Shown: piece by piece, positions 56 to 22,459 of the stretch
How positions within the stretch are numbered: the first letter of the stretch is position 1
Layout of the letters: every line of letters starts with the position of its first letter
NCBI GenBank assembly: GCA_002726495.1
Contig: PBTH01000062.1
Location: 9,239-73,238 of the forward strand
Direction of reading: 5' to 3'
Length of the DNA stretch: 64,000 nucleotides
Source of the DNA: Methanobacteriota archaeon
GTDB taxonomy: Archaea; Thermoplasmatota; Poseidoniia; Poseidoniales; Poseidoniaceae
Notes under the pieces: model-generated
Told to the model about the DNA's origin: nothing
Databases searched by the model: none
The model's input: only the letters and a program-made list of their open reading frames with translations
Translations under genes and position numbers: made by a program

Positions 56-2818
56 TTGTACTCAAATATACTCAAATCGCCTGGTACGATTTTAATTCTT
101 CTTGTCTTAATCACGGGAATCTTTGCCCAACAAGGAATGTCTTTTCAAGAACAGATTGACGATGATGTAGAAATTTTCCTACCCGACGGTGCTCCTTCTA
201 CCGATTTACTCCTTGAAGTGAGAACTGAATGGTCCACCGATTTGGCGGTCATATACATTCAAACACCAAACGCTTTCAATATCGCCGACTCAACCAATAT
301 TACCGAGCAATCTTTTCTTCAAGAAATAAGTTGGATTGAGGGTGATTCAACAAACATCAACAGCGATTCTCGTGGGAGAGGGATTGACTATGACAAAAAT
401 GACCATGGCAGAAAAGACGGTGTCCTCTGGATCATATCTCCTGCACAGGTGATCAAGGAAATAAATTCATCAGACGGCCGGTTCAACAGAGCGCTTTGCT
501 CCAATCTCATCGATGAACGTATACCGCTTGCTTTGGATTGTGATCAAGACCAAACTGGAGGCGAATACAGCATTCCAGACCAAGACCGAATTGACCAAAT
601 TATTGAAGAATCGGATGGCGGATTTGATGCATTGTTCAAGGACACCAACGACATGGACCCTACCGTTGATAGCGACGGTGATGGAAATTATACCAACGAT
701 ATGGATGGGGACGGAATTTGGGATACAACAGCCATTGTTGTTGGTATGCATCATGACCCAAGTGTGACCAAAGAATATGCTGACTTTTCTGAACTACTCA
801 ATCATTTCCAAGATGTCATTGACAATCGTCCGACTGAATATCAGAACACTGAAATGACTGTGACTGGCCTGACAAAGGTCCTCGAAGATATTTCAGATGC
901 AATCTATGAGGACCTCCTCATGATTCTCCCCTACTCAGTATTGTTCACTATACTCGTCATTACCTTCCTCCACAGGTCTGCGAAGGTTGTTGTCATCACC
1001 GGAACTCCAATCCTCATGGCTCTTGCAATCACCTTTGGTACATCTGTAATCCTTGACATCACCCTTACACCGATGATCGTTGCAACATTCCCAATTCTCA
1101 TTGGGCTAGGGGTGGACTATGCCCTGCATATGGTCAATCGAATTGAAGAGGTGCGGCGAAAGGAGATCGATAAGGCGCATGACGATAATGAACGAAGAAG
1201 AAAGCGTGGTGAGCGTGAATTAGAAGTTCCCGACATATGGAGTCTTGACTTCTACAAGTCATGTGTAATGGAAATGACACGTTCAACTGGTGTTGCTGTA
1301 TTCCTTTCTGCTTTGACGACGATTGTTGGATTTTCAGTACTCATTGCACCTGCAATTGTGCCGATTTCTCCAATTCGTTCTGTGGGAATTACTCTTGTGA
1401 TTGGGATCTTCTCCACACTTGTCCTCAGTATTATCCTCGTACCAACTCTTGCATGGTTGCTCAAATTTAACAAGAGAACAAATCCCTCAATGTGGAAAAA
1501 TATTGGGAAATTACCTGTGCGAGGCTTCCTTGTCTTGCTTCTCGTTACTGCCGCAATCACATCATATGGCATCGCGAACTTGGATGAAATGAATGAGCCG
1601 ATAACTGGGTCATCTGAGGCCCCGGATGGTATTGATTCCCTAAACTCACTTGCCCAGTACTCGCGCCAATTCAGCAGCGGACAAACTTCCCTTTTCATTT
1701 ATGATGCATCGGAACGAGAAAATGTCAACAGCTCAGTCAACATACGAGACCTCCCAGTTCTTGATTCCATGGATTCAATAGAAGGAGAAATTGACCTGGT
1801 TGATGAGACCTCTACGACCAGTATCATCACCTTCCTCAAAACCGTACCAGCTGCTATCACGCTTACCGAGGGTGTTACAATTGGCGACGGGTCACTCTGG
1901 GACTTGCTTCACGACCCGTGTTGGGAAAGTCAAGAGATTCTTGATCCAAACTGTCCCGTGTGGACCCTTATTCCAGTTTCTGAACGCGAGGCTCTTAGGA
2001 ATGATATGGTGGAAGTAGCCTTTGATACATTGTCAGAAGAGGTACGTTCAATGCTTCTCAATGAGGATGGGGATAAGGCAATTGTTTACGTCACCCAACC
2101 ATACATGAATTTGAATGTGGCAGGAGAACTTCGAGACGATATTGACGATATACTTGGTGAAGGCCCCACATTGCTCAATACAAGAACTTCCTTACTTACC
2201 GGTGGCCTGCCGGTATCTCTTGATATCAATGACGGGATTCACGACACCCAAGCCAAAACAACAATCATTACACTTATTGTCCTTACACTCCTTCTTTCAG
2301 TCGTATTCCGTTCACCGAGATTGGGAATATACACCATGATTCCTGTTGCTGTCGTCATTCTTTGGCAGCCCCTACTCATGCAAAGTGGGGACGTCAATGT
2401 CAACATCTTTACAGCGATGATTGGGACAATCGTATTTGGTATCGGGGTAGACGACGCCATTCACGTCATGCACCGAATACAGGAGGAAGGGGAATCTCCT
2501 CACGGAATGGCCTCTGCAATTGAGGAAACTGGCCAGACTATTTTTGAAACAACCATCACAACAGTTTCGGGAATCGGTGCGGGATTCCTAGCTGCATTCC
2601 CGGGATTGGAAAATTTCTTCATGCTGATGTGTCTCTTGATTTTCTTCGCTTTCATTACCAGTTCATTCCTGTTGCCAGCAATCATTACCGCAGAGCATGT
2701 GGCAAGAGCGAAAATAAATGGTCACCCACCATGGATTGATTTTGGTGATGGCATCGCTGTATCACAACCAGCGGCAATGAAATCGCTTGATGCTATCGTC
2801 ATTGATGACTCGATTTAG
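56..2818 (+). CDS. RND-superfamily/MMPL-type membrane exporter
   Basis: Two blocks of about 6 TM helices, each preceded by a large extracytoplasmic domain. Both TM blocks carry the RND/MMPL signature GxGVDYALH/GIGVDDAIH (GLGVDYALHMVNR and GIGVDDAIHVMHR). The ORF opens with a TTG (no in-frame ATG upstream; stop at 17-19), and an N-terminal TM helix is needed for RND topology. Confidence 0.75.
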   Translation: MYSNILKSPGTILILLVLITGIFAQQGMSFQEQIDDDVEIFLPDGAPSTDLLLEVRTEWSTDLAVIYIQTPNAFNIADSTNITEQSFLQEISWIEGDSTNINSDSRGRGIDYDKNDHGRKDGVLWIISPAQVIKEINSSDGRFNRALCSNLIDERIPLALDCDQDQTGGEYSIPDQDRIDQIIEESDGGFDALFKDTNDMDPTVDSDGDGNYTNDMDGDGIWDTTAIVVGMHHDPSVTKEYADFSELLNHFQDVIDNRPTEYQNTEMTVTGLTKVLEDISDAIYEDLLMILPYSVLFTILVITFLHRSAKVVVITGTPILMALAITFGTSVILDITLTPMIVATFPILIGLGVDYALHMVNRIEEVRRKEIDKAHDDNERRRKRGERELEVPDIWSLDFYKSCVMEMTRSTGVAVFLSALTTIVGFSVLIAPAIVPISPIRSVGITLVIGIFSTLVLSIILVPTLAWLLKFNKRTNPSMWKNIGKLPVRGFLVLLLVTAAITSYGIANLDEMNEPITGSSEAPDGIDSLNSLAQYSRQFSSGQTSLFIYDASERENVNSSVNIRDLPVLDSMDSIEGEIDLVDETSTTSIITFLKTVPAAITLTEGVTIGDGSLWDLLHDPCWESQEILDPNCPVWTLIPVSEREALRNDMVEVAFDTLSEEVRSMLLNEDGDKAIVYVTQPYMNLNVAGELRDDIDDILGEGPTLLNTRTSLLTGGLPVSLDINDGIHDTQAKTTIITLIVLTLLLSVVFRSPRLGIYTMIPVAVVILWQPLLMQSGDVNVNIFTAMIGTIVFGIGVDDAIHVMHRIQEEGESPHGMASAIEETGQTIFETTITTVSGIGAGFLAAFPGLENFFMLMCLLIFFAFITSSFLLPAIITAEHVARAKINGHPPWIDFGDGIAVSQPAAMKSLDAIVIDDSI

Positions 2819-2851
2819 AATGATTGGATCTCTTCACAGTCAAGACAACAT

Positions 2852-4150
2852 TCAACGGATTCTATTGGGGTTGACCCATTCATCCCAAGAAGATTCAAAA
2901 CCGACGTAATGAATGAGGTAATCTGAGTTTCTGCGTTCTCGGATAATCGCATCCCACCAGGAACCTTGCCACTCAACTTTGACCGCTTGACCAGGTTCAA
3001 AAATTTGTACATTAAATGGATGGTCCTCCGGTCGAACGGACCACCCAGTAGGACCAACAATGTAAACAGTATTTTGCGTTTCAACACGCGCTGTTGCACG
3101 TTCATCGTAGGTTACTGACACAATAGGGCTGCTTCGGAGGTTTTTGGCGTCACCAAGTTTCGGGTGAGCATAAGCGTGTCCGTAGAGCAGACCGTCTCGA
3201 ATTTCCGTATTTTGAATGAGAACTTCTGGCTTTCGTGGTTCTGCATTTGCTAACATTTCCGAACCAACAAGATATTTTGCTAATTCACGATAATTAATTT
3301 CTGAATCTTCTCCGATACCCAATTCTTGGAATTCTCTCATCACATCTTCGGGAGAAAGTGGTTCGTCACCTAATTCCGTCAATATTTTAAAATATTCACT
3401 TGCAGAAATCATGCCGCTGTTGTCGTCATCAAATACTTTAAACGCTTCAATTAATTCAAACTCAGCTTCTGAAATATGTTCGACATATTCTTGGATTTCA
3501 GGAGATTCAAGGGCCAATTTTTCAACTCGATTCCACTCAACTTCATCTTCAATATCTCCATCATCAAAATGAATCAAATAGGTATGATTCTCATGGTCCT
3601 TTGCGATTGTAGCAGGATAGTATGTACCATAATTTTTCCAATTCACGAGCACCTTATCGCCCACAACATACGGCGGTGATGCGGGGCGGATCGTTCCTGG
3701 CGTAGTTCCAATGATGACTGCTGGCTTGATTTGGACCGTATCGGTGTATGGGACTTCAATTTCATATGTGCCATCTGCATTGATGCCAATGACCTTGCAC
3801 CGATCCAACCAACGCTCATTCGTTGGACTGTAATATTCAACATGGTCACCAACCTGAAACGCAGCAGGCAATTCAACAGCTTCTGGAGGCAAGGTCGTTA
3901 CCGTTTCAGAAGGATTGGCTCCAATAACGCCAAGATGTTTCAATGCTTCAATAACCGCAGTTGTGACAACAGTTGCATCATTGTTAACCACAGTATTGTG
4001 TACAATATCACCACTCATCACGGAGTCGTTCATCGTGAAGGTGTTAGGAGCAGATTGCTTGGGGGCATCAGTGACATTTGGGGGGGCAGGAATCCATTCG
4101 GTACCTGTCCACATAAAGTTCCCATCAGGACTTAAAATAGGGTCTACCAT
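2852..4150 (-). CDS. EF-hand calcium-binding protein with three Tudor/chromo-barrel-like domains
   Basis: Three repeats of a Tudor-like pattern: VGDHVEYYSP..WLDRCKVIGI..DGTYEIEV; VGDKVLVNWKNYGTYYPATIA...YLIHFDDGDIEDEVEW; PGQAVKVEWQGSWWDAIIRE...YLIHYVGFESSWDEWV (chromo-barrel-like HYxGxxxxWDEWV). A canonical EF-hand loop DDDNSGMISASE is followed by a second degenerate EF loop. The start is placed at the internal ATG (4148-4150) because the upstream 35 codons of the long ORF overlap the RNase P RNA. Confidence 0.55.
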   Translation of the reverse strand: MVDPILSPDGNFMWTGTEWIPAPPNVTDAPKQSAPNTFTMNDSVMSGDIVHNTVVNNDATVVTTAVIEALKHLGVIGANPSETVTTLPPEAVELPAAFQVGDHVEYYSPTNERWLDRCKVIGINADGTYEIEVPYTDTVQIKPAVIIGTTPGTIRPASPPYVVGDKVLVNWKNYGTYYPATIAKDHENHTYLIHFDDGDIEDEVEWNRVEKLALESPEIQEYVEHISEAEFELIEAFKVFDDDNSGMISASEYFKILTELGDEPLSPEDVMREFQELGIGEDSEINYRELAKYLVGSEMLANAEPRKPEVLIQNTEIRDGLLYGHAYAHPKLGDAKNLRSSPIVSVTYDERATARVETQNTVYIVGPTGWSVRPEDHPFNVQIFEPGQAVKVEWQGSWWDAIIRERRNSDYLIHYVGFESSWDEWVNPNRIR

Positions 4151-4202
4151 AAATCCCCATTTCCCACGTACTCTTTGATTGTTCGGTTGAATTCTTTGAA
4201 GT

Positions 4203-4505
4203 GGAGGGAGTAGGGAGTAAGCCCCTTTCTGTTTCCTTTCGGTGATCGCATTCAACTGTGCGTCCTACCTGTTCCTCGTCGTGCCGAGTTAACGGAACGG
4301 TTTGGACTTGCTCCAGCGGGGTTGCTCGTCTCATCGACAACAGGGCAATCTCGGTCTTTCAACGTCATTGTACACACCCTGTATCGTTCGTTTCTGCTGC
4401 ATTGACCCAACCATTTCTGTTTGCTTCCTTATGTCAGCCGCTTGCACTACGGAGAGGGGACTTTCCTCAGAGTCGAACTCTGTCAGCGATCCTCCTACTC
4501 CCTCC
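4203..4505 (-). ncRNA. rnpB: RNase P RNA (archaeal type A-like)
   Basis: On the minus strand: P1 5'-GGAGGGAGUAGGAGG pairs with 3'-CCUCCCUACUCCCUC (13/15 bp). P2 GAUCGC pairs with GCGAUC. P3 is a hairpin, CAGAGU-UCGA-ACUCUG. The P4 5' strand GAGGAAAGUCCCC pairs with the P4 3' strand ACAGAAAGGGGCUUA; the bacterial/archaeal consensus is AGGAAAGUCCGGGC...ACAGAACCCGGCUUA, and the CGG->CCC / CCG->GGG swaps are compensatory. Conserved GGAGCAAGUCCAAAC, ACAGGUAGG and UGAAUG elements are also present. Confidence 0.85.
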
Positions 4506-4557
4506 AAGGTGGACTGCTCGCCTCTAACATTTCAATCCGCCGTTTTGATAAAAACCG

Positions 4558-7500
4558 TCACTGATACGGATTTTCACCGGGTGATAGTGCTTCATTAGGA
4601 GCACCATAAGGTCCGGTGGGAGGTTTTGCCTCTGCCCTTTTCACAGCAGGAGGTTGATTGGATTGTCCCAATTGAGGTTGTTGTATCTCCTCCCGGCGCA
4701 AACCGTAAACAAGCAAACCTACCAAGCCCATTGTTAGCAGACCAACAACAACGAGGAGTGATGAATTAACACTGGAAATACTACCAAGAACACCCTCACT
4801 ACGTGGCTCATCAACACGGACCGTAGAGGATTGAATACTTGGGCCATTGACGATGTTTATTTCCAGCCACATGGTACCGTCACGAGTGGGTTTCCAAGAA
4901 TAATCATACAGAATTGTCTCCCCTGATTGAATTGCAAGTGTACGTGCATCAAGTTGAGTTCGGGCCCCTGTTGATTCAACAAGGTTGACGATGATTTGGG
5001 CCTCACCATCAGCTAAACCAGTATTCGAAATCATTGTGGCTACTTCAACATAATCTCCTTGGTGAATATCTGATGTTGGGTCCATTTGTACCTTCGTAAA
5101 TGAGTAAATCGGAACGCGCTGTTCAAGAGACCAAACTCGGAGAGGTGAATCGATATCATTGAACACTTCATCGACTTGAAGGCCAGCTGCATCCATTCCA
5201 GTCACCCAAATTCGTAGTTCAACAGCGCTCGTCCGGTAAACAGGAAGCATTAACTCGTCAAGATCCAGAACGCAACGCACAGGAATTGATTCGCCAGCAA
5301 GACGTTCTCCTAAGATTTCAAGCGGTAAACTTCCATTTTCGTAAACATATGAATTGATACCCAAACCTGCTTCATTAAGAGACCAATGCAGACGAAGTGA
5401 GGATTCGTCAAGTCGTGCATTTTCATTAAGACGTAATTCAAACTGTAGGTTTTTCCAATCTTCTTCTTTCAACTCTGAATTTTCTGAAGGACGGTCGATA
5501 GCCGTGACTTTGGGTGCTTGATTGTCAACGATGAACCATATGAATGCGGAATTGTCCCCGCGGTAAATCGCTCCATTTGGTGCATCATAAAGGCCTCCTT
5601 TCAAGCCATAAGTGTCTTCAATAAGTGGCGCCATTATGGTCCCGGAAAATGTACCATTGATGGTCTCAAGTACGGCTGAATTTTCACCAAGGTCTATCGC
5701 AACATCAAGATCCTGAAGAATCGGTTGTTCAGTTCGATACCAAATAAGCGACCCTGATAGGTCAAAGGTCGTCCTTGGCTTGACCCAATACCCCATTGAA
5801 TCCGTTGCTTCATTACCGAGAGTTACAGAAAGTGATTCTTCGTCAAATACAATCTCACTGGAATACTTCCAGCCGAGTGGTTCGAGTGTAAAACGGTTGG
5901 ATTGTCCTGTTTGGTCAAGCATTGTAATGTGAGGTATACGAACCAAGGAAGTATCAGCATCATATCCCCAATCAATCGAGAAATTGGCCACAAATTCACC
6001 GTTTCTTGAGAACAAGTCATCTTCTTCCGTAGGAATCAGCGTGCATGATTCAATGTTGATGTAATTGTGGGATGAAGTACAGATTCCAGAAGATTGATTC
6101 CATGAAATTGTGGCAGGGAATGGTGTGTTTGAAGCGAGGGAGAGATTGATTTCTGCGATGTCAAAAATTCCATTCTTTTCCCAAATAGGAACTTGAATCA
6201 TGGTTGATTCACCGGGGTGAATCCATGGATTCACTCCTTGACTCCATCCGATTGAGGCAGCACCAAGAGATGGTGCACCATTGTCATTGATTTGGACATG
6301 GAAAAGAGGTGAATTGTACGTCCCTGATCCGGCCATAAGATGCCCTGCGCTGTCAGCTACCTCCAACCAACCAACAAAATAATCTCCAATAGTAGCATCA
6401 GAGGTATCAAGAACGAGTGAATAATCATCCATAAGTGGAGTCAAGTTTTCGGGCTGGTTCAAATCTTTGATTTGAACTTCATCTTGGTCCATCATTCCAT
6501 CCTGGTCCGCATCATCAATCCATGACTTCCAAACATATGCTTTGGCGTGAGTTGGTAAGTTTGGTCGGTCACTGATTGTAAAGTGAAGAGGTGTAATTGG
6601 ACTTGAATCACGATGATCAAACATTTCAACATCGGATTTAATCAGCGTTGGTGCGATGTTGTCAAAGAGGAAAGTGTATGATGTATTGACCTGGTGCACG
6701 GCTTCTTGCCCCCGCAGTGGAATAACTTCAACGCCAAGTTCCATTGAAGAGCGACCGGTTGGAATACTGTATGGGAACAGTGCTACTCCATTGGTGTAAG
6801 ATGAGGATGTCGCATATTCAGTACCATCAACCAAAAATCGGACCAAAGCCTGACCGGAGCGTGGGGTTCCTTCTTCAGTTCCTTCAAATCCAAGCACCAC
6901 CTCAATATTGACCACCTCGCCAGCCCTTAGATAATTATGAGTTGGGGTTGAACGAATTCCATTGCTTGATAGGACTGACCATGATTCAAGAGAAATGTCA
7001 TTCTCTACACCTTGGTCATCGCCAAGTCCAAAACTCGCAGAGACAGGCAACATGGGACCAGAAGGCGCAAGAAGGTTCACAGCGATGACTGCAGAAGGTT
7101 CATCGTTCCAAGAATCAGGGAACTTGAAGCGATGATTAAGTTCCAAGAAACTTCCTGAACCGAGAGCATCGATTAAGCCGGATTCACCATCGTCAAACCA
7201 AACCAAAGGAATTCCATTTGATGTACAGGTTGAGATGGTAATTGGGGTGATTGGTAGAGCACTAACAGGGCAACGAATGCTAGCTTGAGAGTTTGGAGCA
7301 ATGAGGTTTAACTCAACTTCCCAAGAGGATTGTTCAGCGTGGGTCAACGCATCTGTGACACTGATTCCTGCAAAGTCAAAAGTAGCTGAAGTTTCAATCC
7401 AATCGTTGCTTGGGACAAGCGTATTGCTGACATTGTTGACATTGATTGAGACCGGTTCAACGGAGGCTTGAGTTTGGACATCGTTGACCGTAAGCAAAAC

Positions 7501-9612
7501 AGAACCGGTGCCGTCCATTCGTACAGGGAGTGTAATTTCCTTCTCTCCTTGAACGGCTACAATCCCTGACAATGCATCATTGAGCCCGATGACGAGAGGG
7601 TCAGCTGCATTCAAGTTCAGCGACAAACTGCTATTGTAAGGCGAGAATATGCCTCCAAGGAGAACATCGCTAGAAGAGAGTGATGAGCCAATTCGAATTT
7701 GAAGTGTTGCCATTTCTAAGGACGAAATACCAACGGTATTCGTTGATGTACTAAGAGCGGTGTTGAGGGAGGAAAGTTCGGTAGAAGTTAATGTTATGAT
7801 CTGAAGGTCTTGAAGATTGGACAGTCCACGATTGAGAATGTCTTGACCGTTTACTGACATGGCCATGAATGGATTAGCAAGTTCTGTTGAGGGTGAAGCA
7901 AGAGCAAATTGAAAGGCATCAACTCCTGAGGTCGGAAGAGCAACATCAAAGTTAGCAGTACCGGACGGAGAAGAGTAAAGAAGGTTCCACATATCTCCAT
8001 TTAGCAATTCATCTTGTAATCCAAGCGAACCGATGCCGTCCCTCTCGAGAGACCACTCTGGAATTCCATCCAATCCGATGTCAAATCTAAGGCCACTGAC
8101 AACCGATGTGCGGACGAGTTCAGCCTCAAATGCATCCCAAGAGTAAGTTCCTCCTGAACTTCTCATTCGGAATTGGACCATGAATTTCGGCTCATCGAGG
8201 TCGAGATTGCCTTGAGAATTGAGGGGCAACCACGTATCGCCCCCATCGGTGGTCACTTCCATGTAACCTGGACCTGTGACTGTATTTGCAGTTTTGATGG
8301 CTGAAAAACCACTTCGCACGTGATAAACTTCGGAAACAACATCTCCACTGCTACTGATCGCTCCACTTGATTGCCATGAACCGGATTGGATGTTCCATCC
8401 ATTGTTGGTGGGGTCGTCGTCAAAGGTTTTGGAAAGATGGCCGTCAAAAGAAATACTACGTATTTTAGACACCCCGCCCCCTGAACCTTGGAGCATGTGA
8501 ATCTTCAACCGAGCCGATGGATGTTCTCGCCAATCAACAATACCAAGATCAACTTGAGTTGCAGTCATGTGCTCAAAACCAGGAATTGGCATCATCGTTT
8601 GTGCGTCCAAGAGTTGCCATTCAAAGACCGAAGATGGATCAATTGTTGCATCCATGTGCATGAATCCGTAAGAGCGTTCTTCTCCACGACCCAAATCGGT
8701 TGGTGCAAAGGTACTTGAGGTCCAATTCCCTTCTCCAGTGGAGATTCCAGATGCTGCAGGAAGAATTTCTACATCGTCAATATTCCAACCTGTATATTGG
8801 ACAGAACCATCGGATGATCCCAATCCAAAACGAACTTGGAAATTCGGATTGTTTAGAACATAATTTGTGATGGACACTGTTTGCTGAACGTAACTTCCAT
8901 CGTTGGTCGTACTTTGAGGATTTGACCATACATTGACCCAGTTTCCATTTGAGCCTTTAACAGACACATATGCATGGTCATAATACGAACTCTCAACACC
9001 GAGTCGCTTCATGAATTTAAGATTCCAAGCTCCTGAACAACCTCCACAGTTCATCACAGGTGAAGTGGCCCAGTAGGGACCTCCCATATATGTGGGATAA
9101 TTTCCGTTATAGGTGTAGATTGCCTTAGTTCCACTGCTGGCGCCAATGCTGCCATCAGTGCCGTGAAACCAAACGTTGGTGCCGCCAAGGGTGAAGGGGT
9201 TAACTCCCTCAAAATCATAACTCCATCCTTGGGGTAACAGTGCCAGTTCAGAACCGTTGACATCCATGCCATCGTATACCGAGCCCTGATCAAAATCACC
9301 TGCTTCACTCCAAGAGGAAGCCACGGAATCGCTGAGATCCGATGCTTCTATTCCAAGTTCAAGGGATTCAATCGCATGCCCATCTGGAACAGAAATACTC
9401 ACTCTCTGATTCGCACCATCCGGCCATGAGCCAACGGTAATGGCAGTTGCTTGACCCAATGTTGAGGCTTCAAATGGACTGGATATTTCGTCTTCAGGCA
9501 GGGGTTGAACTGTAGGTGTGTGAATCAATGGAATCAATGAGAATAAGAAAAGTGTGACCAGGCCGGCTGCAACGACACTACTACGGTGCGCTCCCCTCAT
9601 GGATTGAGACAT
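4558..9612 (-). CDS. giant extracellular surface protein, signal peptide plus C-terminal TM anchor, possible MAM-like domain
   Basis: 1684 aa. N-terminal hydrophobic signal (VVAAGLVTLFLFSLIPL), Ser/Thr/Asn/Gly-rich beta-type sequence throughout, one C-terminal TM (LLVVVGLLTMGLVGLLVYGL) followed by a short Pro/Lys-rich cytoplasmic tail. Residues about 150-280 resemble a MAM/jelly-roll domain (NCGGCSGAWNLKFM ... GWNIDDVEIL). Confidence 0.8.
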   Translation of the reverse strand: MSQSMRGAHRSSVVAAGLVTLFLFSLIPLIHTPTVQPLPEDEISSPFEASTLGQATAITVGSWPDGANQRVSISVPDGHAIESLELGIEASDLSDSVASSWSEAGDFDQGSVYDGMDVNGSELALLPQGWSYDFEGVNPFTLGGTNVWFHGTDGSIGASSGTKAIYTYNGNYPTYMGGPYWATSPVMNCGGCSGAWNLKFMKRLGVESSYYDHAYVSVKGSNGNWVNVWSNPQSTTNDGSYVQQTVSITNYVLNNPNFQVRFGLGSSDGSVQYTGWNIDDVEILPAASGISTGEGNWTSSTFAPTDLGRGEERSYGFMHMDATIDPSSVFEWQLLDAQTMMPIPGFEHMTATQVDLGIVDWREHPSARLKIHMLQGSGGGVSKIRSISFDGHLSKTFDDDPTNNGWNIQSGSWQSSGAISSSGDVVSEVYHVRSGFSAIKTANTVTGPGYMEVTTDGGDTWLPLNSQGNLDLDEPKFMVQFRMRSSGGTYSWDAFEAELVRTSVVSGLRFDIGLDGIPEWSLERDGIGSLGLQDELLNGDMWNLLYSSPSGTANFDVALPTSGVDAFQFALASPSTELANPFMAMSVNGQDILNRGLSNLQDLQIITLTSTELSSLNTALSTSTNTVGISSLEMATLQIRIGSSLSSSDVLLGGIFSPYNSSLSLNLNAADPLVIGLNDALSGIVAVQGEKEITLPVRMDGTGSVLLTVNDVQTQASVEPVSINVNNVSNTLVPSNDWIETSATFDFAGISVTDALTHAEQSSWEVELNLIAPNSQASIRCPVSALPITPITISTCTSNGIPLVWFDDGESGLIDALGSGSFLELNHRFKFPDSWNDEPSAVIAVNLLAPSGPMLPVSASFGLGDDQGVENDISLESWSVLSSNGIRSTPTHNYLRAGEVVNIEVVLGFEGTEEGTPRSGQALVRFLVDGTEYATSSSYTNGVALFPYSIPTGRSSMELGVEVIPLRGQEAVHQVNTSYTFLFDNIAPTLIKSDVEMFDHRDSSPITPLHFTISDRPNLPTHAKAYVWKSWIDDADQDGMMDQDEVQIKDLNQPENLTPLMDDYSLVLDTSDATIGDYFVGWLEVADSAGHLMAGSGTYNSPLFHVQINDNGAPSLGAASIGWSQGVNPWIHPGESTMIQVPIWEKNGIFDIAEINLSLASNTPFPATISWNQSSGICTSSHNYINIESCTLIPTEEDDLFSRNGEFVANFSIDWGYDADTSLVRIPHITMLDQTGQSNRFTLEPLGWKYSSEIVFDEESLSVTLGNEATDSMGYWVKPRTTFDLSGSLIWYRTEQPILQDLDVAIDLGENSAVLETINGTFSGTIMAPLIEDTYGLKGGLYDAPNGAIYRGDNSAFIWFIVDNQAPKVTAIDRPSENSELKEEDWKNLQFELRLNENARLDESSLRLHWSLNEAGLGINSYVYENGSLPLEILGERLAGESIPVRCVLDLDELMLPVYRTSAVELRIWVTGMDAAGLQVDEVFNDIDSPLRVWSLEQRVPIYSFTKVQMDPTSDIHQGDYVEVATMISNTGLADGEAQIIVNLVESTGARTQLDARTLAIQSGETILYDYSWKPTRDGTMWLEINIVNGPSIQSSTVRVDEPRSEGVLGSISSVNSSLLVVVGLLTMGLVGLLVYGLRREEIQQPQLGQSNQPPAVKRAEAKPPTGPYGAPNEALSPGENPYQ

Positions 9613-10452: not shown

Positions 10453-10529
10453 GGGCCTGTAGCTTAGTCAGGTAGAGCGATGGACTCTTAATCCATCGGC
10501 CGCGGGTTCGAACCCCGTCAGGCCCGCCA
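10453..10529 (+). tRNA. tRNA-Lys (anticodon CTT), CCA encoded
   Basis: Cloverleaf by eye. Acceptor GGGCCTG/CAGGCCC, anticodon stem ATGGA/TCCAT with loop CTCTTAA (anticodon CTT), T-arm GCGGGTTCGAACCCCGT, discriminator G, 3' CCA encoded in the genome. Confidence 0.9.
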
Positions 10530-10536
10530 CTAACAA

Positions 10537-10830
10537 CTACTCAACATGGCATGCCACAATGTTTGAACGGGAGACTGTTCCGAAGTTGTGAGAGTCTTCA
10601 GAAGCAAGAGGATCTGGCTGGTCACCAACAAGGAAGAAACGGCCCTTGGCGATGGAGTGAATACGCTTCACAACGAGAATATCTTTCTTTAGAGGATGGT
10701 GAGAAAGTACCACCTGACCAACTTTTAGTTCGCTGTTGTCATCGATTGGTTTGAATTCTAGAACCGTACCATCCTTGTATGTTGGCCACATGCTGTCGCC
10801 GTTAATACGAACCTGAATGGGTTCGGACAT
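10537..10830 (-). CDS. sodX: Ni-superoxide dismutase maturation protease (S26/S24-like signal peptidase fold)
   Basis: A 97 aa protein with a GDSMWPT signal-peptidase/LexA-type Ser motif. It lies immediately downstream of sodN on the same strand. Confidence 0.7.
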   Translation of the reverse strand: MSEPIQVRINGDSMWPTYKDGTVLEFKPIDDNSELKVGQVVLSHHPLKKDILVVKRIHSIAKGRFFLVGDQPDPLASEDSHNFGTVSRSNIVACHVE

Positions 10831-10839
10831 ATCATGCCC

Positions 10840-11286
10840 TCAAGAAGCGCGAATCCAAGGGACTTCTCGGCCTTTTACAGCCCAAAACATGTTGTGAATT
10901 GCCTCACATGCGTCCATGAGTTCTTGGGCGTGGTGTGCAGAAACCTCTACCTTGCATGCTGAGCATAGTTTTGCAGCATGCCAAAACGTGTCGTGCAAAT
11001 CTGGGTTTGCTTCAAGATGTTGTGGCTTAAAGAAGTCAGTCCAAAGAACAAGCAATTCATCTTTACATTTCTGGGCCTCTTCTTCCTTGATTGCTGCATA
11101 GCGAGACATGGTGTTGAGGTAGGATGCCATGGCTTGTCCATCGTTGGTCTCAGGGCATGTTAGGCCAAGCATTTTGTTGGTCATGGATTGAACTGCCTCC
11201 GCAGCAATTCGTGCGCTAGCGGGGTCGTATACACCGCATGGTCCGTCACAATGTGCTTCAGCTTCAATGAAAGGGGTTGTCTTCAT
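10840..11286 (-). CDS. sodN: nickel superoxide dismutase precursor
   Basis: The Ni-hook motif HCDGPCGVYDP follows an 11-residue propeptide (MKTTPFIEAEA). Length and helical composition are typical of NiSOD. Confidence 0.85.
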   Translation of the reverse strand: MKTTPFIEAEAHCDGPCGVYDPASARIAAEAVQSMTNKMLGLTCPETNDGQAMASYLNTMSRYAAIKEEEAQKCKDELLVLWTDFFKPQHLEANPDLHDTFWHAAKLCSACKVEVSAHHAQELMDACEAIHNMFWAVKGREVPWIRAS

Positions 11287-16850: not shown

Positions 16851-16928
16851 TGGTGGGCGTACCAAGATTTGAACTTGGGTCCAAGCGTCCCAAACGCCCG
16901 AGTATAGGCCAAACTAACCCATACGCCC
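16851..16928 (-). tRNA. tRNA-Pro (anticodon TGG), CCA encoded
   Basis: Minus-strand acceptor GGGCGTA/TACGCCC, T-arm CCAAG-TTCAAAT-CTTGG, anticodon stem GGGCG/CGCTT with loop TTTGGGA (U33, anticodon UGG, G37), discriminator A, encoded CCA. The D-arm is atypical (weak 3 bp stem) and the body is 75 nt. Confidence 0.7.
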
Positions 16929-18418: not shown

Positions 18419-20323
18419 TCAAAGGAGACGAACTGTCTCAAGATTCTTTGGCGCATAAGTTCTGCAACGATACCGCTCCCTTAGAGTGTGACCAAGTTCG
18501 TTGCATTTTTGATAATCGCCGTGATGGCAAATGATGTTTCGTGGTTTGGGGTTCAATTGGTCAACAAATTCAAGAAGTTGCCTTCGGTCTGAATGACCAG
18601 AGAAACCGTCAATTGTAACCATCTCACAACCAATCTTGACAATTTCCGTTTTTCCATTAATCATCATAGGTACTTCACCAAACCCTTTCTGAAGCCTGCG
18701 TCCAAGTGTACCCTCGGCTTGGTAGCCGACAAAGCAAAGCGAGTTACGTTCTTCATGAGCCCAATTCTTGAAATATTCCATAACAGGACCGCCATTGAGC
18801 ATTCCAGAAGTCGCTAAAACGATGCATGGTGACGGGTCCATAACAATACTTTCACGAAGTTCCCGTCCTTTGACTGGGCGGAACCATTCACTTGTAAACG
18901 GATTCTCCCCATCATCCTTAAGCAAAGATTTGCTCAATGAATTGGTCAAGTACTTTGGATGAGCTGCGTGAATAGCAGTTGCTTCTTGGATCATTCCATC
19001 AAGCCAAACTGGAACGGGTTTAACCGTCCCAGATCTAAACAATTCATCGATAGCGATCATGACCTCTTGACTGCGGCCAACAGCGAACACGGGGCAGATC
19101 ATCTTTCCACCACGAAGCAATGTCCTTGAAACAATATCCTGAAGTTCTTGATTCGCCTCTTGACGTGATGGTTGATAATCACCGGATGCTCCGTAAGTTG
19201 ATTCAATCACGAGGGTTTCAACCCTTGGGAAACGAGTGTTTGCAGCATCAAAGAGCCATGATTTCTCATACTTTTGATCTCCACTGAAGACGATGTTATG
19301 CTTACCATCTGCAATGTTGAGGTGTACTGCAGAAGAGCCAAGAATATGTCCTGCATTTGAGAATGTCAATTTGACATCTGGGGCAATATCGGTTGTTTCA
19401 CCCCAGTCAACATCCACAACATGCTTCATACACATTCGTATGTCTTCCATGTCATAGGGTGAACGCTTGCCCTCAGCACCCCCGACTTTGAGATAATCTG
19501 TTTGTAACAAGAGCATCAAATCTCGGGTGGGTGGAGTGCAAAAAACCGGACCTCTGTATCCATATTTGAACAAAACAGGCAGCATTCCTGCATGGTCAAG
19601 GTGAGAGTGCGTCAAAACCACAGCATCCAGTTTTTCCAGTGGGAGCGCCTCTGGAGCCGTAAAATACGGCATCGGGTCGGTGTCGGAGGCAATGTTAACC
19701 CCAACATCGATCATAATTCTTGATTCATTGGTCGTTACAAAATGACATGCCCGGCCAACTTCACGGTAGGATCCAAGAGCAGTTACACGCGCCCAAGTGG
19801 CTCCTGGGCGAGTAGGGCGGTGAATGTTAAGGCCAAAATCCTTCAACAATTTCCTACGTTCATCAGCTTTTTCTTGGCGGTAACCGCGGATGTCGTGAAC
19901 CGTCTTTGAGAAGAGAGGCGGGGTACGTTCAACCTTGACGGACCAACCGGTTTCGTCACGAATCTTTCGAGTATTTTCTCCACGACGTCCCACAGCAGTA
20001 CCTGGATTTTTACATTGAATCGTCACTTCACGATAGCAGCCATCAAAGTACATCTCTGTGATTTCTGAATCTTCTGGGATGAGGTTTTCAATCACTTCTT
20101 TTGCAGCATCAAGATCCATCATAGCATCAAGAGGTGAGCGCAAAACAATCTTTCTCTTGATTCGCTTTGCAATCTTTCCAATGAGCCCGTCACGACCGCC
20201 AAACTGGTCCATTTGGGTCGTAATGATAGCAATGTTACCCGCTTCTAAATCAACGCTGTAATCGACCGTCTTTGGTACAATTTTCGCGATTTCGTCTTTC
20301 AATTCTTTGTAGGTCATTTGCAT
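18419..20323 (-). CDS. archaeal CPSF1-type beta-CASP ribonuclease (aCPSF1/FttA transcription termination factor)
   Basis: Two N-terminal KH domains, a metallo-beta-lactamase motif (VVLTHSHLDHAGMLP), beta-CASP motifs, and the typical aCPSF1 length of 634 aa. Confidence 0.9.
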   Translation of the reverse strand: MQMTYKELKDEIAKIVPKTVDYSVDLEAGNIAIITTQMDQFGGRDGLIGKIAKRIKRKIVLRSPLDAMMDLDAAKEVIENLIPEDSEITEMYFDGCYREVTIQCKNPGTAVGRRGENTRKIRDETGWSVKVERTPPLFSKTVHDIRGYRQEKADERRKLLKDFGLNIHRPTRPGATWARVTALGSYREVGRACHFVTTNESRIMIDVGVNIASDTDPMPYFTAPEALPLEKLDAVVLTHSHLDHAGMLPVLFKYGYRGPVFCTPPTRDLMLLLQTDYLKVGGAEGKRSPYDMEDIRMCMKHVVDVDWGETTDIAPDVKLTFSNAGHILGSSAVHLNIADGKHNIVFSGDQKYEKSWLFDAANTRFPRVETLVIESTYGASGDYQPSRQEANQELQDIVSRTLLRGGKMICPVFAVGRSQEVMIAIDELFRSGTVKPVPVWLDGMIQEATAIHAAHPKYLTNSLSKSLLKDDGENPFTSEWFRPVKGRELRESIVMDPSPCIVLATSGMLNGGPVMEYFKNWAHEERNSLCFVGYQAEGTLGRRLQKGFGEVPMMINGKTEIVKIGCEMVTIDGFSGHSDRRQLLEFVDQLNPKPRNIICHHGDYQKCNELGHTLRERYRCRTYAPKNLETVRLL

Positions 20324-20409
20324 AGTATCTACCTCGTTCCTGCGCCATCACACTGCCTGTGACATGCCATAAGGCGAATGCGGCTCATGCCGCAGGAATT
20401 GGAAAATGC

Positions 20410-21051
20410 TCACTTGAGGAGCTTTGCAATGTCTTCTTGAGAGACTTGTTGGTAACCAGATGCCGGTGTGATGACAGCCAAATCCATACCGTTTCCGGAG
20501 GCTGCATCTCGTTGGCCTGATGCATAGAGGGCGCGGGCCGCCAGTTTTAATGCATCCGCTTGTGACATCCCTTCACTAAAGCCGTCTTCTAGGACACCGT
20601 ACATGTATGGAGAGCCCGACCCTGTGGCGCAGTAAACATCTGGTATGGACCCGCCAGCTGAATCAATGGAGTAGACATGGCCTCCATCGTCATCGACTCC
20701 AACGATGAGGAGTTGAACCCAGTGGGGTCGGCCGGCGAGAATATTTGCCGTAAGAGTTGCAGCACCTTTGACCGTCATAGGTTGTTGACGACGAAGTTCA
20801 AACAATGCAACCTCTGCTGTTAGAGTTCTGGACAACGACTGGGCGTGACCGACCAGTCCGGCTGTTGTGAGAGCAAGATTGCCTCCAATTTTGAAGAGTT
20901 TTTGGACACTCTTGTTCGCAATGAAATGACCCATTGTTGCTCGGTGGTCGGCTCCAACAACGACACCTCCTTTGAACGTAATTCCCACAGTACTAGTTCC
21001 GGTTTTGAGGACGCCTTGTTGCTCGGTCATGATTTTCCCTTCCGTTGACAC
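20410..21051 (-). CDS. psmB: proteasome subunit beta
   Basis: Propeptide followed by the catalytic Thr motif LKTGTSTVGITFKGGVVVGADHR and the Ntn-hydrolase fold pattern. Confidence 0.9.
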   Translation of the reverse strand: MSTEGKIMTEQQGVLKTGTSTVGITFKGGVVVGADHRATMGHFIANKSVQKLFKIGGNLALTTAGLVGHAQSLSRTLTAEVALFELRRQQPMTVKGAATLTANILAGRPHWVQLLIVGVDDDGGHVYSIDSAGGSIPDVYCATGSGSPYMYGVLEDGFSEGMSQADALKLAARALYASGQRDAASGNGMDLAVITPASGYQQVSQEDIAKLLK

Positions 21052-21200
21052 TCTTTGAACCTTGAGGCTCTAAGATACGGTCGTTGTTGTCCTTTATCAA
21101 GTTCACGAAAATTCGGGGGACAGGAGAAAACGCTGATAACAGTCTGTTTAACCGTAATTGAAGGGGAGTGTTGATGAAGCACCTGTAACAAGCCAATCAT

Positions 21201-21821
21201 GTGCGAAGGAAGAAACAAAAGGTTCCGGACGAAGCACAATCTTCGCTTGACCGGTTCTCAGGAGCCCCGAGTGAACCCGTATCACCTCATCAAGACGAAA
21301 CACCGGTTGTTCCATCAATGCCTAATTTGGATTTGTTGGAACAGGCCGAGGCAAAATTATCTCAACCTCAAGAGGATCAAATCGCGGAGAGTACAGATCA
21401 ATTGCGACGATTCCGAATGCCCAGTTCTGAACATGAAGACGCCAGTCGTCCACCAACCTCTACGATGACCTATCATGACCTTAACACCCTGTACCCCAGT
21501 GCACCCGTCCCTCTAGAAGAAGGAGGCATGGTCTTGCATAACGCTACATTGCACGACTTGACAGGATGCCACCAACTCATGGATTGGGTTGCTGATGGGC
21601 ATGCTTGTATCGTTGAAATGAAACGCCTCATCAAGAGGAAAACTGAATTCTCACAAGCGCTGAATTGGCTTCACACATTCATCGAGGGTGACCTCCAAGG
21701 CCAAATTATCCAGATGACTGAGACTCGTTTGATGCTGCTACCAGAAGGTTGCCGCGGCCTGAAAGGAACCGAGATGGAAGGCTTTGCAGTCGAACGAAAT
21801 GAGTTTACGGGCGTGAATTGA
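21201..21821 (+). CDS. SepF-like (DUF552) cell-division protein
   Basis: The C-terminal about 90 aa (MVLHNATLHDLTGCHQLMDWVADGHACIVEMKRL...QMTETRLMLLPEG) fit the SepF/DUF552 pattern. The N-terminal half is Pro/Ser-rich and disordered-like. Confidence 0.5.
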   Translation: MRRKKQKVPDEAQSSLDRFSGAPSEPVSPHQDETPVVPSMPNLDLLEQAEAKLSQPQEDQIAESTDQLRRFRMPSSEHEDASRPPTSTMTYHDLNTLYPSAPVPLEEGGMVLHNATLHDLTGCHQLMDWVADGHACIVEMKRLIKRKTEFSQALNWLHTFIEGDLQGQIIQMTETRLMLLPEGCRGLKGTEMEGFAVERNEFTGVN

Positions 21822-22459
21822 TGGACGAGCAATCCATTGACATACCATGCCCCATATGCAATGCAAGCGGGAATGTGAAAATGATCGCTCATGTTGATGA
21901 GATCCCATACTTTGGAGAGCATACACAAGTCACAGTTCAATGTCATGATTGTGGTTGGAGACAAACTGATTTTATCCCTGCAGAAGGAAAAAAACCGGGT
22001 GGTTGCTCACTTGTTATTGACAACCCAGACCTCTTGAGTGCTCGAGTTGTTAGGTCTTCTTCGTGCACTGTTCGCCTACCTGAGCTTGACCTTCAGGTCA
22101 ATCCAGGAAGCAACTCAACAGGCTATGTTTCAAACGTGGAGGGAGTATTGAATCGATTTGTAGACATCATCAATTTGGTAAAAAGAGGCCATGAAGCTGA
22201 ACTCATTGAAGCAGATTCCTCGGAAAGCAGAGAAGAACTCATGGGCGAACTTTCAACACTCAACGAGATGCTCGCCAGAATTGAATCTCTAAAAGGGCCA
22301 AAAACAATTGATGCTGTTACCATTGAATTGCTTGACCCACATGGCCATTCGTTGATACTTCATGAAAACACTGTAGAGAGAGAATTAACCGAAGCAGAAT
22401 TGCGTGAACTGCCGGTTGGCCCAGACCCAGCCGTATTTTCTCAAGATGACATGAATTAA
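21818..22459 (+). CDS. ZPR1-type zinc-finger protein
   Basis: CPICNASGNVKM...IPYFGEHTQVTVQCHDCGWRQTDF is the ZPR1 C4 zinc-finger consensus. The start overlaps the SepF-like gene stop (ATGA). Confidence 0.75.
   Translation: MMDEQSIDIPCPICNASGNVKMIAHVDEIPYFGEHTQVTVQCHDCGWRQTDFIPAEGKKPGGCSLVIDNPDLLSARVVRSSSCTVRLPELDLQVNPGSNSTGYVSNVEGVLNRFVDIINLVKRGHEAELIEADSSESREELMGELSTLNEMLARIESLKGPKTIDAVTIELLDPHGHSLILHENTVERELTEAELRELPVGPDPAVFSQDDMN

Follow-up and report, generated by a model that had tools for sequence, protein, structure and literature searches.

An ordinary archaeal type A RNase P RNA gene in a Marine Group II archaeon, with a clade-level P4 base pair and a short P19 hairpin

RNase P trims tRNAs at their 5' ends; its RNA is universal, and the archaeal type A form of this RNA is well described. 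The bacterial RNA has the further helices P13, P14 and P18, and its partner is a single protein. The bacterial type A RNA of E. coli (rnpB, M1 RNA) shares with the RNA analyzed here the common core, the CR-I/CR-V logic and a P4 helix with a bulged U, but its P4 reads CCGGG/CCCGG where ours reads CCCCU/AGGGG. With the archaeal type A RNAs (RF00373; for instance the RPRs of Pyrococcus furiosus and Methanothermobacter thermautotrophicus), the likeness covers a full-length model match, CR-I to CR-V, P1-P12, P15-P17, the P4 and P6 pseudoknots, P8, the GGU of L15, a 3-nt J2/3 and a P4 of the form AAG(U)CCCC/GGGGCUU; the differences are an innermost P4 pair that is U-A against a consensus C-G, a GNRA-capped P19 that is not modelled in the Rfam consensus, and a short P12. 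Marine examples are also on record, as the Sargasso Sea metagenome yielded archaeal type A P RNAs, one of which was active after reconstitution with proteins of M. jannaschii (Li et al., 2007; PMC1874661). By their description, these resemble our RNA in being marine, from uncultured organisms and of euryarchaeal type A, found by covariance-model search and judged on the same structural criteria, with the difference that some of them have a single-nucleotide J2/3 whereas the RNA described here has the usual 3 nt (UGA). Our literature search for RNase P in Poseidoniales found nothing beyond an unrelated review.

We analyzed a stretch of 64,000 nucleotides (hereafter the window) from a Poseidonia-like Marine Group II archaeon, in which a first-pass annotation had placed an RNase P RNA on the minus strand at 4203-4505. 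We scanned the whole window with the Rfam 15 covariance models and retrieved a single RNase P match, to the archaeal family RF00373, at positions 4206..4502 of the minus strand with an E-value of 2.9e-66. The match was untruncated (model positions 1-288 of 288), and its score of 226.2 bits stood far above the gathering score of 84, bearing out the proposed identity from end to end. A permissive local Rfam scan of the region returned the RF00373 match with an identical score; the bacterial and nuclear RNase P clan models scored lower than RF00373 and were dropped. Other sub-threshold Rfam matches in the region (CRISPR-DR2 with 20 bits, DUF3800-V and mir-3192) were set aside as chance matches.

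Beyond the Rfam match, P1 is lengthened by 3 bp (GGA/UCC), which leads exactly to 4203..4505; these pairs are kept in 78 of 102 relatives and are replaced by a compensatory UGA/UCA in 9 of the 102. BLAST homology to a more distant locus (L011) also spans exactly 4203..4505. From the covarying GGA/UCC and the ends of the homology with L011, we set the length of the gene at 303 nt, in agreement with the first-pass coordinates. The gene sits in a 407-nt intergenic gap, between the stop of a 1684-aa ORF at 4558 and the ATG of the downstream gene at 4150, and no oligo-T terminator was seen on inspection of the sequence directly 3' of it. We are close to certain that 4203..4505 (minus strand) is a functional gene and that its product is the catalytic RNA of RNase P, of archaeal type A. 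Its family membership, structure, covariation, conservation and synteny are matters of direct observation, and what we have here is an ordinary housekeeping gene of a known kind, which standard tools detect at once. The coordinates of all features are given in Table 1.

Table 1. Features of the RNase P RNA gene, its surroundings and other tRNA-related genes of the window (window coordinates).
Feature	Coordinates	Strand	Basis or observation
RNase P RNA gene, archaeal type A, 303 nt	4203..4505	-	RF00373 match, P1 extension and L011 homology
P1, 5' strand GGAGGGAGUAGGAG	4492..4505	-	Double-sided changes in 7 of the 11 P1 pairs modelled (n = 98)
P1, 3' strand CUCCCUACUCCCUCC, one bulged C	4203..4217	-	Rfam model and alignment
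P2, 5' strand GAUCGC, then 3-nt J2/3 (UGA)	4486..4491	-	Paired in 100 % of cells; double-sided changes in 4 of 6 pairs
P2, 3' strand GCGAUC	4244..4249	-	Rfam model and alignment
P3 hairpin CAGAG UUCGA CUCUG	4468..4482	-	100 % paired, 2 of 5 pairs covary
CR-I and P4 5' strand GAGGAAAGUCCCCU	4455..4468	-	Invariant in 98 relatives
P5, CUCC / GGAG	4451..4454 / 4311..4314	-	Rfam model and alignment
P6 pseudoknot, GUGC / GCAC (P16/17 loop)	4444..4447 / 4281..4284	-	Covaries
Specificity domain: P7, P8, P9, P10/11 and P12 with CR-II and CR-III	4315..4442	-	Double-sided changes in all these helices
P15-P16/17 arm, L15 internal loop with invariant GGU (4267..4269)	4262..4307	-	Rfam model and alignment
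CR-IV AGUUGAAUG	4249..4257	-	Invariant
Short P19 hairpin in J2/4, A CC GAAA GG A	4234..4243	-	7-nt insertion relative to the Rfam consensus, between P2 3' strand and CR-V
CR-V and P4 3' strand ACAGAAAGGGGCUUA	4218..4232	-	Invariant; strand unconstrained by the search pattern
Candidate TATA-like box TTGAAAT	4529..4535	-	Lies 30 to 24 nt ahead of the first G in P1
1684-aa surface-type protein gene, upstream of the RNA	4558..9612	-	Stop codon 4558..4560 bounds the intergenic region
Tudor-knot/EF-hand protein gene, downstream of the RNA	2852..4150	-	Start is ATG 4150 (432 aa), not TTG 4255
Overlapping ORF	4258..4527	+	In-frame stop in 72 of 97 homologs
Overlapping ORF	4302..4598	+	In-frame stop in 53 of 97 homologs
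Overlapping ORF	4125..4340	-	In-frame stop in 60 of 97 homologs
N-terminal extension of ORF 2852..4255		-	In-frame stop in 37 of 97 homologs
tRNA-Lys(CUU)	10453..10529		3'-CCA encoded
tRNA-Pro(UGG)	16851..16928	-	3'-CCA encoded; ARAGORN and local Rfam scan (47.7 bits, gathering 29)

The strings quoted in the first-pass annotation were all present where expected (GGAGGGAGUAGGAGG at 4505..4491, GAUCGC at 4491..4486, GCGAUC at 4249..4244, GAGGAAAGUCCCC at 4468..4456 and ACAGAAAGGGGCUUA at 4232..4218), as were the two stretches that it had called conserved, GGAGCAAGUCCAAAC at 4314..4300 and UGAAUG at 4254..4249; the one correction concerns the 3' strand of P1, which had been mis-transcribed and is in fact CUCCCUACUCCCUCC with one bulged C. 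Helices P1 to P4, whose formation had been claimed, form both in the alignment to the Rfam model and in an alignment of 98 sequences. CR-I to CR-V correspond to GAGGAAAGUCC, AGAAACGA, UGAGACGA, AGUUGAAUG and ACAGAAAGGGGCUUA respectively; they align to upper-case consensus positions of RF00373 and are invariant or nearly so in the 98 relatives. The 5' strand of P4 consists of A40, A41, G42, the bulged U43, C44-C47 and U48, and pairs with A277-U284 on the 3' strand. In the model alignment P11 (UGCA/AGCA) is uninterrupted and J2/3 is the 3-nt UGA. P12 is short in the window RNA, and non-standard pairs occur twice in P8 and once in P9. An invariant UGA...GAG motif lies in P12 at the consensus K-turn positions, and we consider it a candidate K-turn; L7Ae-binding K-turns are found at the corresponding place of P12 in other euryarchaeal RNAs (PMC5499556).

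A J2/3 of 3-4 nt and a P11 without AA interruption have been described as archaeal rather than bacterial signatures (PMC1874661), and both are found here. The features of type A are likewise present, namely P8, the P6 pseudoknot and the P15-P16/17 arm with L15, with P8 and P15/P16 aligned and covarying. Together with the 3-nt J2/3 and the uninterrupted P11, these features assign the RNA to archaeal type A under the same criteria.

For the covariation analysis, we assembled an alignment of 98 distinct full-length sequences (A1), onto which the Rfam consensus structure was projected and to which P4, P6 and the J2/4 hairpin were added. Standard pairs were found in 92.3 % of the 8170 cells of this alignment, against 37-43 % when the 3' partners were slid by 1-3 columns. 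Double-sided changes affected 50 of the 84 pairs, and none of 500 column shuffles reached any of the five measures. The covarying helices were P1, P2, P3, P6, P7, P8, P9, P10/11, P12 and P16; P6, for instance, is GUGC/GCAC in the window and ACGC/GCGU, CAUGC/GCAUG or GACGC/GCGUC in relatives. The 7 pairs of P4, with the bulged U, formed in all 98 sequences, and these pairs and P5 showed no variation in A1, so that they argue neither for nor against the structure. The minimum free energy fold was not significantly more stable than those of shuffled sequences (z = -1.53, 9 of 100 shuffles equal or better), a result that is uninformative either way because the RNA is pseudoknotted and protein-dependent.

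Relatives were collected by scanning species-representative genomes for a pattern that combined two conserved stretches of the RNA. This yielded at least 120 loci, nearly all of them from Marine Group II MAGs (with the labels Poseidoniales, Poseidoniaceae, Poseidonia or Thalassarchaeaceae), the remaining few coming from other Thermoplasmatota. Among the matches listed, the closest over all 297 nt were L064 (CALKGM010000002.1, 97.6 % identity), L049 and L007 (both 97.3 %) and L016 (96.6 %), and identity of the RNA ranged from 97.6 % down to about 71 %. We ran RF00373 on 11 loci, including the most distant, and all scored 192-226 bits. The four closest RNAs share with that of the window the flanking genes, the U-A pair of P4 and P19, and differ from it by few substitutions; the Tudor-knot/EF-hand gene is found in the window genome and L016.

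More than 90 loci agree in having RpiA, the 1684-aa surface protein, the RNase P RNA and the MMPL-family transporter in this order. The 1684-aa protein adjoins the RNA in 97 of the 120 loci listed (out of at least 120), with 45-86 % identity. This protein had no Pfam match and carries near its C-terminus a hydrophobic stretch resembling a membrane anchor; it is likely one of the large cell-surface proteins that are typical of Marine Group II. As a separate observation, a 2.4-kb contig (L022, CALDQY010000214.1) binned in a MAG with the label "uncultured Rhodobiaceae bacterium" has an archaeal RNase P RNA of the Poseidoniales type that is 83.6 % identical to that of the window, for which mis-binning is the most likely explanation.

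The conservation of both sequence and position bears on whether the gene could be a decaying or redundant copy, with the functional RNase P RNA gene elsewhere in the genome. Our view of this genome is limited to the 64 kb of the window, which leaves room for such a second gene, but we hold this explanation to be very improbable: the match is full-length, every conserved region is intact and invariant across 98 relatives, the score is level with those of orthologs (226 against 223-226 bits), and the orthologous syntenic position is shared by more than 90 species. Moreover, the substitutions relative to other species are compensatory, which points to purifying selection on the structure.

The first-pass annotation had singled out a compensatory P4 covariation in which CCCC/GGGG replaced the usual CCGG core. 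We compared P4 in E. coli rnpB (AAG(U)CCGGG / CCCGGCUU), in the Rfam archaeal consensus (AAg(U)CCcCC / GGgGGcUU) and in the window (AAG(U)CCCCU / AGGGGCUU). The CCCC/GGGG is indeed there, and is invariant in all 98 aligned relatives; it is not special, however, since the Rfam archaeal consensus is already CCCC/GGGG, so that the contrast holds against bacteria only and represents a domain-level signature. The pair that does depart from the archaeal consensus is the innermost one, U48-A277 in the window instead of C-G. Using the search pattern described above, in which position 48 was left free and the 3' strand of P4 was unconstrained, we found this pair to be U-A in 109 and C-G in 7 of the 120 loci listed (out of at least 120), never U-G or C-A, the other 4 being on truncated contigs. 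The C-G carriers are other Thermoplasmata and Methanomassiliicoccales, and U-A is the state of Poseidoniales. The switch between U-A and C-G is a clean, if minor, compensatory change at the level of the clade.

A second departure from the Rfam consensus is the short hairpin in J2/4. We considered whether it was a new element and rejected this, as its position is that of the known helix P19, which is of variable length, stacks on P2 and has been sporadically lost among archaea (PMC12974513); it is thus an already described element that lies outside the Rfam family model. In Poseidoniaceae, P19 has a stem of 2-3 bp and a GNRA loop (GAAA, GUAA, GCAA or GAGA). Stems of 5-6 bp with compensating sequences also occur (GCCGGA/UCCGGU in L034 and GCUCC/GGAGC in L080), and in five other Thermoplasmata P19 is absent and the joint is 2-3 nt long. 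It seems unlikely to us that the U-A closing pair of P4 and the GNRA-capped short P19 amount to a small new structural variation of the Poseidoniales RNA, in which the tetraloop would make a tertiary contact (e.g. partly replacing the missing P18/L18 strut) or a lineage-specific protein contact. Both traits are handy phylogenetic signatures of the clade, and they open no new question.

The RNA gene overlaps several reading frames, and we retrieved ORFs 4258..4527, 4302..4598, 4125..4340 and 2852..4255 just as they had been listed. The first three and the first 35 codons of the fourth had been considered non-coding, correctly so in view of stops in homologs and of homologous proteins that start at 4150. 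We translated 97 homologs in the overlapping frames, within the RNA portion only (Table 1). The idea that the region is protein-coding, i.e. that 4258..4527(+), 4302..4598(+), 4125..4340(-), 4331..4507(-) or the first 35 codons of 2852..4255(-), one or more of them, encode protein and that the likeness to an RNA is incidental, can draw on the mechanical presence of these ORFs and on the long one being open from TTG 4255, but has next to no chance of being correct, given that the frames are broken by stops in 37-72 of the 97 homologs while base pairs are kept by compensatory changes, that the downstream protein has homologs of 430-436 aa which align from ATG 4150, and that the downstream gene is missing at this locus in most relatives, in which the RNA is kept. 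With the region read as an RNase P RNA gene, the annotation should label this gene, remove the four overlapping ORFs and shift the start of the downstream gene to 4150. More than a hundred public genomes of Marine Group II hold near-identical copies of the RNA, and the value of the finding is correct annotation only; it holds no surprise for the specialist.

We then turned to the downstream gene itself. Its 432-aa product had 391 homologs at E <= 0.001, typically of 430-436 aa and covering 100 % of the 432-aa version, and several of them, in Poseidonia and Thalassarchaeaceae, are named "Tudor-knot domain-containing protein" at NCBI. Pfam domains of the protein were several of Tudor-like or chromo-like type (Tudor-knot, Agenet and Tudor_2/3/5) together with an EF-hand pair. 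Its placement between the RNA and the MMPL gene (window 2809..4195) is confined to this genome and L016; in L064, L007, L049, L026 and others the RNA and the MMPL gene are immediate neighbours. Since members of the family occur widely in Poseidoniales, at other loci (391 matches, 58-99 % identity), this distribution indicates a relocation at this locus, and for the same reason we set aside the notion of a mobile insertion targeting the RNA gene. A conserved archaeal protein that combines eukaryote-style methyl-lysine-reader folds with a Ca2+-binding module may merit a study of its own.

The RNA folds as a canonical two-domain ribozyme. Its catalytic domain is made of P1-P5, P15-P17 and P19 and includes both pseudoknots, P4 and P6, and its specificity domain is made of P7-P12. 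By analogy with characterized members of the family, together with POP5, RPP30, RPP21, RPP29 and L7Ae it would remove the 5' leaders of pre-tRNAs, with a metal-binding active site expected around P4 and CR-I/IV/V and with P7-P12 predicted to recognize the tRNA elbow. The invariant GGU of L15 appears placed to pair with the 3'-CCA of tRNAs, a contact consistent with CCA being encoded by both tRNA genes of the window. One of these, tRNA-Pro(UGG), was missed by the whole-window Rfam gathering scan, presumably because of speed filters. Genes for the five protein subunits named above were absent from the 26 window ORFs scanned with Pfam and are presumably located elsewhere in the genome.

To describe the region upstream of the gene, we tabulated base frequencies across 99 homologs. 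A T-T-N-A-A-A motif was conserved at -29 to -24, with T at -29/-28 and A at -26 to -24 in about two thirds or more of the 99 relatives. In the window it takes the form of the TTGAAAT box, whose sequence fits an archaeal TATA box and whose position suggests that transcription starts close to the mature 5' end (4505) or right there. Transcription would thus probably proceed from this candidate box, about 27 nt upstream, and begin at or very near 4505. The recurrence of TTGAAA(T)/TTTGAA boxes across Poseidoniales could exemplify a TATA-box variant of this uncultured order.

The window also holds a housekeeping cluster at 18419..22459, comprising FttA/aCPSF1 (634 aa, 18419..20323) and two proteins of 213 aa each, a proteasome subunit and a ZPR1-type zinc-finger protein. 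This is ordinary archaeal core gene content, which confirms the chromosomal context, and the FttA/aCPSF1 homolog identifies the window as archaeal. Lastly, at 10537..11286 of the minus strand we noted a gene for a 148-aa nickel superoxide dismutase (Sod_Ni), after which comes a small ORF (97 aa) for an S26/S24-like peptidase; this arrangement is reminiscent of the sodN-sodX maturation pair that marine bacteria are known to have.
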